This document shows, piece by piece, positions 37,479 to 42,109 of a stretch of 64,000 bases of DNA (position 1 is its first letter; each line of letters opens with the position of its first letter). A program made the translations under genes and the position numbers. This stretch comes from a virus (lineage: Duplodnaviria > Caudoviricetes), in the IMG/VR virus record IMGVR_UViG_3300037067_015039, positions 1 to 64,000 of that record. One strand, given 5' to 3'. The notes beneath the pieces were generated by a model, which worked only from the letters and a program-made list of their open reading frames with translations, searched no databases and was not told where the DNA came from.

Positions 37479-37712
37479 CTAATCCTTTGGCGCGGCTGGC
37501 AGAATATAGAAATTGCGCCATTCCCCGCAATTTACACCAAACAAAATATCTTGGTTTTTCCAGACTTCCAGCCGGCCATTAATTTCACTAACTGTAATCT
37601 GGTTTGCATGCGCAATTTCCTGCGAACTACCGTCTCGGAAAAAAATCCGAACTGCCTTATTCCCTTTAATCTGATATTCCCTTAAAAGCTTCGATTCTGA
37701 GATTTCGCTCAT
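37479..37712 (-). CDS. Hypothetical protein
   Basis: MSEISES start; overlaps the end of the upstream gene. Confidence 0.5.
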   Translation of the reverse strand: MSEISESKLLREYQIKGNKAVRIFFRDGSSQEIAHANQITVSEINGRLEVWKNQDILFGVNCGEWRNFYILPAAPKD

Positions 37713-38004
37713 CCATTGCCGCCTCCACGGCTTTCTCGACGTCCGCAAGTTGTCCAAGACGACGAGACACTTCCACCTTATGCCAATGTTTAAAAGTAAC
37801 AGAATTGACCATACGTTCTAATGCTGCTTTTTTGTTTTGAGCTTGAGATCTGAATTCGCGTCCTTCGCCAAAAGCGCCAGACGCTATATGCGTGATGCGG
37901 ACTCCGTTTTGATTGGAGTTTTGATGCTGGCCGCCAGGGCCACCTGTGCAGAAGGTGGCAATTTTGAAATCCTTTTTTGTCAGACTAAATAAAAGTTTTC
38001 TCAT
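37666..38004 (-). CDS. Stand-alone GGQ peptidyl-tRNA hydrolase domain (RF-1 family, PrfH/ArfB-like)
   Basis: TFCTGGPGGQHQN...GVRITHIASG......RSQAQNKKAAL. Confidence 0.92.
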   Translation of the reverse strand: MRKLLFSLTKKDFKIATFCTGGPGGQHQNSNQNGVRITHIASGAFGEGREFRSQAQNKKAALERMVNSVTFKHWHKVEVSRRLGQLADVEKAVEAAMDERNLRIEAFKGISD

Positions 38005-40510: not shown

Positions 40511-40666
40511 TGGCCTTTAAGTCGATCAGCCTATTTTTCTGCGCGTTTACCATTTACGCCATTGCCCCATAATAAAGTTAAGGCGGGGCAAGAAGGATTC
40601 GAACCTCCAATTTCGGTTTCCCGAAAACAGGACCCTAAGTCATGTAAGCTATTCAGTAAAAGGCCA
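40511..40666 (-). ncRNA. Y-RNA-like unit Y4 (YrlA-like permuted tRNA mimic, long variable arm)
   Basis: UGGCCUUU/AAAGGCCA stem; GGAGGUUCGAAUCCUUC T arm; UUGCCCC/GGGGCAA acceptor; GCGUAAAUGGUAAACGC D arm. Confidence 0.85.
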
Positions 40667-40900
40667 TAATCTTTTCAAAGATCTGGAAGAGTCTGCAACG
40701 CCTTGGAGCCTGTAATATAATTCCGCAACTAATTCAGGATCCACGTTAGTCCGAATCGCTTGCTCTGGTAGCCAAGAGGCAGTGTGTTTTTACCTGGACT
40801 CAGACTCTATAATCCGGGGGGCTCTTGGGACGCTATCCACTTTGAGCCCCTATTCAAAATGCCCTCAATATGGGCGTTTAGTATTTTATGGCTGTAAGCC

Positions 40901-40931
40901 GTTTCAATCCACGCCTCACAACGGAAGCGAC
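40901..40931 (-). CRISPR. Solitary type I-C-like CRISPR repeat (no array)
   Basis: GTCGCTTCCGTTGTGAGGCGTGGATTGAAAC fits GTCGC...GCGTGGATTGAAAC, with a CGCUUC/GAGGCG hairpin; no cas genes in the window. Confidence 0.85.
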
Positions 40932-41052
40932 TTGGCTGTAAGTCGAATGAGGATCATTTGTGTTCGATACCCATCGACCCCCCCATACTATTTTTGTGGA
41001 GGGGGGCGCCTGCGAGGCGCTACGCATGTAGCCTCAAAACAGTAACAGCCAA
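40932..41052 (-). ncRNA. Y-RNA-like unit Y5 (degenerate three-hairpin cargo)
   Basis: UUGGCUGU/ACAGCCAA stem; scaffold motifs present. Confidence 0.75.
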
Positions 41053-41246
41053 ACTCTAATCCCTGTGGTCCGGACAACTCACTCCCAAGTACCCCGGATT
41101 CCCGGATTGCAAGATCATAGTCAGAAAACAAAATCGGCTTGCCCCTTGGAGTCGGTCTCTTGCCAATTTCTGCTATGTGTATCCACGGGCGCTAATCCCT
41201 TGCTGTGTTGGGGCGATGGCTCTCACGCCAATGCCACAGGGAAAAT

Positions 41247-41819
41247 CTACTTGATTACCCGCTTTGCGAGATAATCAACAAACTTATTAGGATCCATCCC
41301 GCGCTCTGCGCACCAGATAAACGGATCCTGCGAACCTTTATCCTTGTTGCATGATTTGCAGGACGTCAGATAGTTCGAAGTATTATTCTTCTTTTCGTCC
41401 ATTTCGAGAGGGATGAAGTGATCAATCGTCATAAGAGCTTCACCCATCTTTTTCCCGCAATACATGCATTTGAAACCATCGGCCGCCCAAACCTTTTGTT
41501 GGATCGAGCCTGATATTTCATATCTCACCTTTCGTTGGAAGATCTTGGGGTTTCCAACAAGTATTTCCGGATCATCAGAGCGGTGAATGAAATCAGACCA
41601 TTCTTCTACTGTAAGTTCTCTCCATTCGCTATAAGCACATATATCCATGCCATTATTATTGGCTCGGTTAAGAACTCCAGGAAGGGCCAGAATCATGCTC
41701 GAACCACCCCCTGTAAGAAGAATGCCACTAATCTTAACCAGTGACCCGATATCCCCATACATAACCGGGCGATTTCGCATTTCCATCAAATAAAACCGAT
41801 CACCGCTACTCTTGGCCAT
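41247..41819 (-). CDS. HNH endonuclease within the RNA array
   Basis: DGFKCMYCG...TIDHFIP...NYLTSCKSCNKDKG. Confidence 0.9.
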   Translation of the reverse strand: MAKSSGDRFYLMEMRNRPVMYGDIGSLVKISGILLTGGGSSMILALPGVLNRANNNGMDICAYSEWRELTVEEWSDFIHRSDDPEILVGNPKIFQRKVRYEISGSIQQKVWAADGFKCMYCGKKMGEALMTIDHFIPLEMDEKKNNTSNYLTSCKSCNKDKGSQDPFIWCAERGMDPNKFVDYLAKRVIK

Positions 41820-41982: not shown

Positions 41983-42109
41983 GTTCCCTGAAAGTCGCTC
42001 AGCTTTTTAAGGATTGAATAATCGGATTTGAACCGATCACACACTGATTTAAATTCAGTTGCTCTACCAAATGAGCTATATTCATGTACGCTGAACAGTG
42101 TCAGGGAAC
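41983..42109 (-). ncRNA. Y-RNA-like unit Y7 enclosing a non-permuted tRNA cloverleaf (anticodon UUA)
   Basis: GUUCCCUGA/UCAGGGAAC stem; D arm, ACUGA-AUUUAAA-UCAGU, T arm in normal order. Confidence 0.82.

Follow-up and report, generated by a model that had tools for sequence, protein, structure and literature searches.

Background

Solitary CRISPR repeats (SRUs) are a known class of viral element: 2,103 have been counted in viruses, and several of them act as RNA anti-CRISPRs, or Racrs (PMC10651486). The type I-C member RacrIC1 has been shown to work and is co-transcribed with the neighbouring gene acrIC5 (Camara-Wilpert et al. 2023, PMC10651486), and type I-C is frequent in the accessible part of the SRU list of that study (PMC10651486). 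The repeat described here, which we identified in a window consisting of the first 64 kb of a complete virus record of 109,212 bp, resembles these elements, and RacrIC1 in particular, in being a single phage-borne repeat in which the hairpin and handle of one defined subtype (I-C) are preserved. Like RacrIC1 with acrIC5, it is co-oriented with its neighbours and could be co-transcribed with them. Unlike RacrIC1, it sits in a cluster of Y-like RNAs next to a Ro60 gene, neither beside an acr gene nor directly behind a recognisable promoter, and it differs from the known SRUs in its shortened hairpin (6-bp stem, 6-nt loop) and in a PAM-anchored duplication of 12-13 nt.

Two other kinds of system invite comparison. 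Viral Cracrs carry short pseudo-spacers, with a median of 19 nt for type I-F, and together with the host CreA/CreR mini-arrays (bioRxiv 10.1101/2024.10.29.618823) they share with our locus a repeat-derived RNA, here of a phage, followed by a short PAM-proximal match to a PAM-flanked DNA site. Our locus departs from them in having no second repeat or pseudorepeat, in that the match is to neighbouring sequence of the phage itself, derived from the duplication, and in that a sister phage (L002) conserves neither match nor PAM. The pairing of a Ro60-fold protein with adjacent tRNA-like Y RNAs is likewise familiar from bacteria and phages (YrlA, PMC4201824; phiLo Ro60, PMC12135203). In contrast to those systems, the present locus has a CRISPR repeat, which lies outside the closing stem of the Y-like unit Y5 and which most homologues of Y5 lack. 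To our knowledge there is no known case of a CRISPR repeat in a Y RNA.

Identity and setting of the repeat

The repeat, GTCGCTTCCGTTGTGAGGCGTGGATTGAAAC, occupies 31 nt of the minus strand (40901..40931), reading from 40931 to 40901 exactly as first reported, and begins one base (A, 40932) after the closing strand of Y5. Its sequence matches only once in the 109,212-bp genome, and the 109 kb contain neither a further repeat nor the repeat-spacer periodicity of a CRISPR array or mini-array. By our own arithmetic, the pattern GTCGC-N12-17-GCGTGGATTGAAAC would be expected by chance about 3e-6 times in 64 kb. The element is composed of a 5' GUCGC, a 6-bp stem (CGCUUC/GAGGCG, with one G.U) closed by a 6-nt loop, and an 11-nt 3' handle, UGGAUUGAAAC (40911-40901). 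No credible open reading frame runs over the site, which is intergenic.

A scan for GTCGCYTC-N4-10-GAGGCGTGGATTGAAAC in one genome per prokaryotic species returned at least 120 stretches, most of them arrays. Among the matches listed, arrays of this family (GTCGCYTC-loop-GAGGCGTGGATTGAAAC) reach 118 repeats and are spread over many phyla, with Anaerolineae, Acidobacteriota, Desulfovibrio, Shinella, Hahella, Treponema and others as array-bearing taxa. The phage repeat has the same 5' GTCGC, stem and 3' GAGGCGTGGATTGAAAC as these array repeats, and the Shinella array follows Csd1(Cas8c)-Cas7-Cas4-Cas1-Cas2. Judged by this sequence comparison, the phage element is a genuine type I-C repeat, as proposed. 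Array repeats are mostly 32-33 nt long, with a stem of 7-8 bp and a 4-nt loop, against the 6-bp stem and 6-nt loop of the phage copy. The 3' 17 nt of the phage repeat are identical to those of array repeats, and an indel and loop changes separate it from every array variant among the matches listed, leaving less than 20 nt of uninterrupted identity. The predicted stability of the hairpin is -7.0 kcal/mol in the window, -9.7 in L002 and -13.3 for an array repeat. In the unconstrained minimum-energy fold of the window, a competing helix, GUUGUGAG/CUUACAGC (40889-40920, minus strand), formed by the loop and 3' stem of the repeat (GUUGUGAG) with the downstream duplicate (CUUACAGC), displaces the repeat hairpin; it does not do so in L002. 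Cas5d, the sole cas family searched for, was not found in the phage. With its I-C sequence and hairpin, its solitary state and its intergenic position on a mobile element without Cas5d, the repeat has the properties by which an SRU is recognised.

The surrounding Y-like RNA cluster (42110-39930, minus strand) is a run of units, each of which comprises a closing stem, YACUG, UACAUG, cargo and CGACUU; one of the units gives a sub-threshold match to Rfam YrlA (42.7 bits). Unit Y5 itself (40932..41052, minus strand), whose 3' end is the site of the insertion, has homologues in 8 lineages, among which its closing stem covaries (GGCUGU/ACAGCC, GGCCUGU/ACAGGCC, GGCCGA/UCGGCC). Downstream of the cluster lies the gene for a 508-aa protein, P0001 (38401..39927, minus strand). 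Pfam, NCBIfam and PDB profile searches assigned this protein to no family by sequence, and the fold search alone succeeded: its AlphaFold2 model (pLDDT 81) has a Ro60/TROVE plus vWA fold, and its best 12 Foldseek matches in the PDB are all Ro60/TROVE proteins (E 1e-10 to 5e-8), the Ro60 of Thermus phage phiLo among them. A Ro60 gene beside Y-like RNAs, which the original prediction had asserted, is thus corroborated by structure prediction. A Ro60 relative, P0004, shows 74% identity; a close relative of the locus was sought in a phage collection and none was found there.

Other features of the neighbourhood include a tRNA called by ARAGORN, with the anticodon UUA (ochre-reading), nested in a Y-like scaffold (42011-42085, minus strand), and a 112-aa open reading frame with an RF-1 domain of the peptidyl-tRNA hydrolase type (37666-38004, minus strand), located just downstream of the Ro60 gene and kept in relatives. 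Between an HNH gene and Y5 there is an element of about 183 nt (41068-41250, minus strand), closed by CCCUGUGG...CCACAGGG, of which L138 has a diverged form and which is precisely missing from L002, where 8 different letters occupy its position.

A recent insertion flanked by a duplication

We gathered Y5 homologues from viral and metagenome contigs by their cargo motif, and via homologues of Ro60. Six lineages more distant than L002 carry Y5 with neither the repeat nor a second closing strand (L138/L145, L140, L142, L143/L146, L149 and L154); the Ro60 of L138/L145 is 79% identical to that of the window phage, and that of L140 66%. In these repeat-less homologues an A-rich linker comes immediately after the 3' end, CGAC(U/C)U and the closing strand. 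Metagenomic DNA contigs of this repeat-less kind from groundwater and landfill stop aligning exactly at 40931, and across the region 40650-41300 the window, sister and repeat-less types are found side by side in groundwater and landfill metagenomes of several studies. Because of these homologues and of the contig break at 40931, we regard the repeat and one copy of the duplicated 12-13 nt as an insertion of 44-45 bp that postdates the divergence from the relatives with 79% Ro60 identity. On the evidence of these alignments, the repeat is a recent insertion in the phage lineage. The sister phage L002, whose Ro60 is 88% identical, has it at the same place, and the six more distant Y5-bearing lineages do not. 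L002 comes from sample 3300037067, which does not appear in the accessible part of the SRU list of PMC10651486. Nor does it belong to the Y RNA scaffold, being located 3' of the covarying closing stem and missing from those six lineages.

The 10-bp direct repeat that had been noticed around the element is real and extends to 12/13 positions, GACTTACAGCCA at 40944-40933 and GGCTTACAGCCA at 40900-40889. The upstream copy, GACTTACAGCCA (40933..40944, minus strand), is the true Y5 3' end, comprising part of the CGACUU motif and the closing strand; the window, L002 and L138/L145 share it unchanged, and the other Y5-bearing relatives have a covarying closing strand in its place. The downstream copy, GGCTTACAGCCA (40889..40900, minus strand), abuts the 3' end of the repeat in the manner of a target-site-duplication scar and differs from the upstream copy by one transition in the window and two in L002. 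Directly 5' of the upstream copy is a TTC (40945..40947, minus strand) with the position and sequence of the type I-C PAM (PMC7049708); L002 has GCC where the window has TTC. Because abutting, PAM-flanked duplications also occur at other lone I-C repeats, as detailed below, we regard the window's duplication as most likely a scar of the insertion and not as a feature special to the Y RNA.

Some 25 nt past the repeat is a conserved hairpin (GCCC-loop-GGGC; 40861..40875, minus strand, with stem 40875-40872 / 40864-40861) that had been likened to a decayed second repeat. Hairpins with covarying stems stand at the same place in two relatives without the repeat, GCCA/UGGC (UGCCA...UGGCA) in L138 and CGUGCA/UGCACG in L142, so the hairpin predates the insertion and there is no second repeat. 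It receives a terminator-like score on the plus strand only.

Between the window and L002 the repeat is identical at 27 of 31 positions, including every one of the last 17 nt (17/17). One of the differences is a C/U exchange that keeps its pair as G.U, and the other three are in the loop. Over the same divergence, identity at the 4-fold degenerate sites of the Ro60 gene is 62%, and the downstream duplicate has accumulated 3 changes in 12 nt over both lineages (1 in the window, 2 in L002), with none in the upstream copy. At the rate of the duplicate we estimate that about 6 changes would be expected in the 25 non-loop positions of the repeat, where 1 is observed. Because the 4-fold sites and the downstream duplicate, the nearest neutral yardsticks, are more changed than the hairpin and handle, the latter appear to have evolved under constraint. 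This is modest evidence for selection, given that it comes from two repeat-bearing lineages and that the surrounding non-coding RNA region is itself conserved at 85-98%.

PAM-anchored duplications at other lone type I-C repeats

Our discovery set comprised 87 non-redundant solitary I-C repeats in fetched viral and bacterial loci, in which we looked for abutting duplications of at least 10 nt. Such duplications, 10-16 nt long and abutting the repeat on either side, were present at 6 of the 87 lone repeats and at 2 of 3,480 control offsets; an independent validation set from a further scan gave 2/27 against 0/1,080. Over both sets, abutting duplications of 9-16 nt accompany 8 of 114 lone I-C repeats (~7%), compared with 2 of 4,560 control offsets. 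A ninth case, L214, was kept outside the tally as too near the end of its contig. In all nine (the 8 tallied and L214) the upstream copy is preceded by TTC, TTT or CTC, trinucleotides with a background frequency of 5.7%, and every duplication starts with a purine. Orientation does not vary either, the PAM-proximal end of the downstream copy being joined to the 3' end of the repeat like a spacer in an array, and the duplicated sequences themselves are mutually unrelated. From these counts and alignments, PAM-anchored duplication is shown to recur at lone I-C repeats. We found no description of such a duplication at SRUs in PMC10651486, in reviews or in keyword searches of the literature.

Besides the window, the loci with PAM-preceded abutting duplications are L010, L125, L171, L194, L198, L214, L337 and L344. 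In L125 and L171 the duplicated piece includes the ribosome-binding site of the next gene, and in L125 its start codon too, and in L194, L198, L337 and L344 the duplications are in AT-rich spacers. The genome of L125, a 2.5-Mb MAG (G001), has no array with this repeat and no second copy of the duplicated site. Mimicry of a leader-repeat junction was considered as the source of the TTY trinucleotide and rejected, as real array leaders end in GCG or GCA.

For type I-F, none of 7 usable lone repeats has an abutting duplication, a sample too small for a conclusion. One lone I-F repeat (L322:233-260, plus strand) is associated with a 27-nt direct duplication containing a hairpin, whose downstream copy is offset by 4 nt, unlike the I-C geometry. 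In another I-C locus (L004:892-922, plus strand), about 35 nt following the lone repeat resemble a TTC-preceded stretch some 40 nt upstream at about 24 of 35 positions by our own count; the stretch is in the end of the preceding gene, and either an earlier signature of this kind that has since diverged or a duplicated gene may account for the resemblance.

Possible functions of the repeat

The reading we favour, at a probability of about 0.55, is a joint one: the element is a candidate Racr, a type I-C SRU at the Y5 3' end, and the duplication is the scar of its insertion. An SRU would have entered the phage lineage after the split from the relatives with 79% Ro60 identity, at a TTC-flanked site that happened to be the Y5 3' end, with 12-13 nt of the target being duplicated. 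The repeat would thus lie beside Y5 because that is where a TTC-purine site lay, the CGACUU motif of the Y scaffold supplying C-G. Placed in sense orientation within a co-oriented and probably highly expressed non-coding RNA cluster, it would be co-transcribed with that cluster, and host Cas5c/Cas5d would bind and cleave the RNA at its hairpin and 11-nt handle. The spacer-less product would thereby sequester Cas5 and Cas7 in unproductive complexes, in competition with genuine crRNAs.

Action as an RNA anti-CRISPR is probably the function of the repeat, a view we take because of its sense orientation in an RNA cluster, the constraint on hairpin and handle, the lack of Cas5d, and the presence of other solitary I-C repeats in two related phages. 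One of these is a different lone I-C repeat between two genes (L163:1037-1067, minus strand) on the same contig as L140; the other, also a different repeat, comes just after a TTGACA promoter-like box (L143:7415-7447, plus strand) in a phage with a Y5 homologue. Both are at genome positions other than that of the window repeat, positions that are classic for Racrs, and neither has a duplication. Racrs are usually transcribed at a high level from a promoter within ~250 bp; consensus promoter matches near the window repeat are at chance level, and no anti-CRISPR protein gene was recognised near it. The part of the original prediction that survives is a real solitary I-C repeat on a phage, in a class that yields Racrs. 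A functional link of the repeat to the Y RNA or to Ro60 is unsupported, as is its chaperoning by Ro60. A host with type I-C CRISPR-Cas is likely, with the other lone I-C repeats of two related phages as indirect support. When 1,737 spacers extracted from the family's arrays in the fetched loci were compared with the phage and its relatives, no match exceeded 17 contiguous nt.

The alternative that survives best, though we consider it unlikely, is that the repeat was implanted at a protospacer targeted by the host and is today an inert scar or escape mutation with no RNA-level function. On this view the insertion moved the full protospacer away from the TTC PAM, leaving it preceded by the end of the repeat (..AAC, a 'self' context), and the PAM-anchored duplication is consistent with an event next to a PAM. 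The weakened hairpin of the window with its competing helix, and the drifting downstream duplicate, also speak for this alternative, and the change from TTC to GCC in L002 would fit either escape from recognition or its decay. However, hairpin and handle are far better conserved than the 4-fold sites or the downstream duplicate, and point mutations would be a much cheaper means of escape. The lone I-C repeats of related phages, promoter-proximal or intergenic and without duplications, further suggest that such repeats are kept for a function.

An improbable alternative, and the one closest to the original prediction, makes the fusion to Y5 a design: with a second closing strand, the Y RNA could either exclude or enclose the repeat, and in this way Ro60 would stabilise or deliver a Racr, or host Cas5d would mature the Y5 3' end. 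The downstream copy can indeed pair with the Y5 5' strand UGGCUGU, and in constrained folds the two closings are 2-4 kcal/mol apart in both the window and L002. The two downstream-copy substitutions of L002 still pair as G.U, its repeat's last C together with the duplicate restores the full CGACUU motif, and the neighbouring protein has the Ro60 fold. The alternative closing strand is thus sound as a pairing of near-equal folding energy; an adaptive role for it is not supported, as the same kind of duplication flanks lone I-C repeats in unrelated contexts without an RNA stem (L125, L171, L194, L198, L337, L344). Against the proposed design stand the six more distant Y5-bearing relatives, which do without the repeat and the duplicated strand. 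In addition, the downstream copy in the window has changed from CGACUU to CGGCUU, the repeat is outside the cargo position of the Y scaffold, and two wobble-preserving transitions are statistically meaningless.

We find it about as improbable that the repeat yields a crRNA-like regulatory RNA of the Cracr/CreA type. Its handle and the next ~23 nt would in that case direct the Cascade of the host, with no cleavage, either to a promoter of host cas or toxin genes or to the adjacent TTC-GACTTACAGCCA site on the phage itself. Viral Cracr pseudo-spacers are short, and a TTC-flanked site lying 44 nt upstream agrees with the 12 nt after the window repeat at 11 of 12 positions. That adjacent site in the phage itself is the only match found for the pseudo-spacer, and it is not conserved in L002. 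Self-recognition is not conserved, with a mismatch at seed position 2 in the window and loss of the PAM and mismatches at positions 6 and 10 in L002, so that a conserved self-targeting guide is unsupported. The second repeat that Cracr, CreA and CreR elements possess is missing, the downstream hairpin being older than the insertion, and in every case of the census the match abuts the repeat as a duplication does, whereas a regulatory target would vary in distance.

The weakest proposal is that the lone repeat serves as a handle by which the phage would recombine homologously with the CRISPR arrays of its host, so as to integrate there or to disrupt the array, an idea first put forward for SRUs in the literature (review PMC8616872) and compatible with the 3' 17 nt shared with array repeats, but opposed by the less than 20 nt of uninterrupted identity to array variants among the matches listed, by a ~109-kb virus with no integrase noted near the locus, and by the lack of any chimeric phage-array contig among the metagenome contigs aligned to the locus. 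Even in combination, the Y RNA/Ro60 design, the regulatory guide and the recombination handle have a small chance of containing the true explanation.

Possible origin of the insertion

The geometry of the duplications, a spacer-sized insert with a short duplication and a single PAM-defined border, fits a staggered attack of the integrase type. Precedents are the off-target ('neo-CRISPR') integration by Cas1-Cas2 and the 14-15-bp target-site duplications of casposons (PMC5137440, PMC6977970). The lone repeats share with these a spacer-sized insert (31-33 bp) and a short direct duplication of the target, and their 9-16-bp duplications bracket the casposase range. They differ in that the insert is a CRISPR repeat, neither a spacer nor a transposon, in that the duplication is much shorter than the repeat-length one made by Cas1-Cas2 at arrays, and in that one border carries the PAM of both interference and adaptation. 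We know of no enzyme that has been shown to make such PAM-bordered repeat insertions. A Cas3 nick as the ruler for 9-16 nt was rejected, as the I-C nick is reported to fall ~30-35 nt from the PAM (PMC7049708). Plain homologous recombination with an array spacer would give a duplication of ~34 nt.

We tentatively raise the possibility, to which we give somewhat less than an even chance, that at least some lone phage repeats, instead of being captured by chance recombination, were implanted at PAM-flanked sites by the type I-C machinery of the host, whether Cas1-Cas2-Cas4 or a Cascade-linked activity, in a kind of 'reverse adaptation'. Such an event would leave a 9-16-bp target duplication, with its PAM-proximal end joined to the 3' end of the repeat as in an array, and would put that 3' end where a full-length downstream copy of a targeted protospacer would need its PAM.

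Implications

The repeat adds one type I-C Racr candidate to the SRU/Racr class, which was already known. It is also a pointer to type I-C CRISPR-Cas in the host of a clade of phages of ~100 kb, from landfill and groundwater, that encode Ro60 and arrays of Y-like RNAs. In our view the PAM-anchored duplication at lone I-C repeats is the most interesting result. Should the scar hold up across the whole SRU catalogue and, with the PAM proper to each, in further subtypes, it would reveal the route by which phages come by anti-CRISPR repeats. It would also mean that CRISPR adaptation or interference has a side reaction on phage DNA that has so far gone undescribed. Reverse adaptation, if true, would mean that the phage was given a ready-made decoy RNA, which would explain the origin of Racrs.
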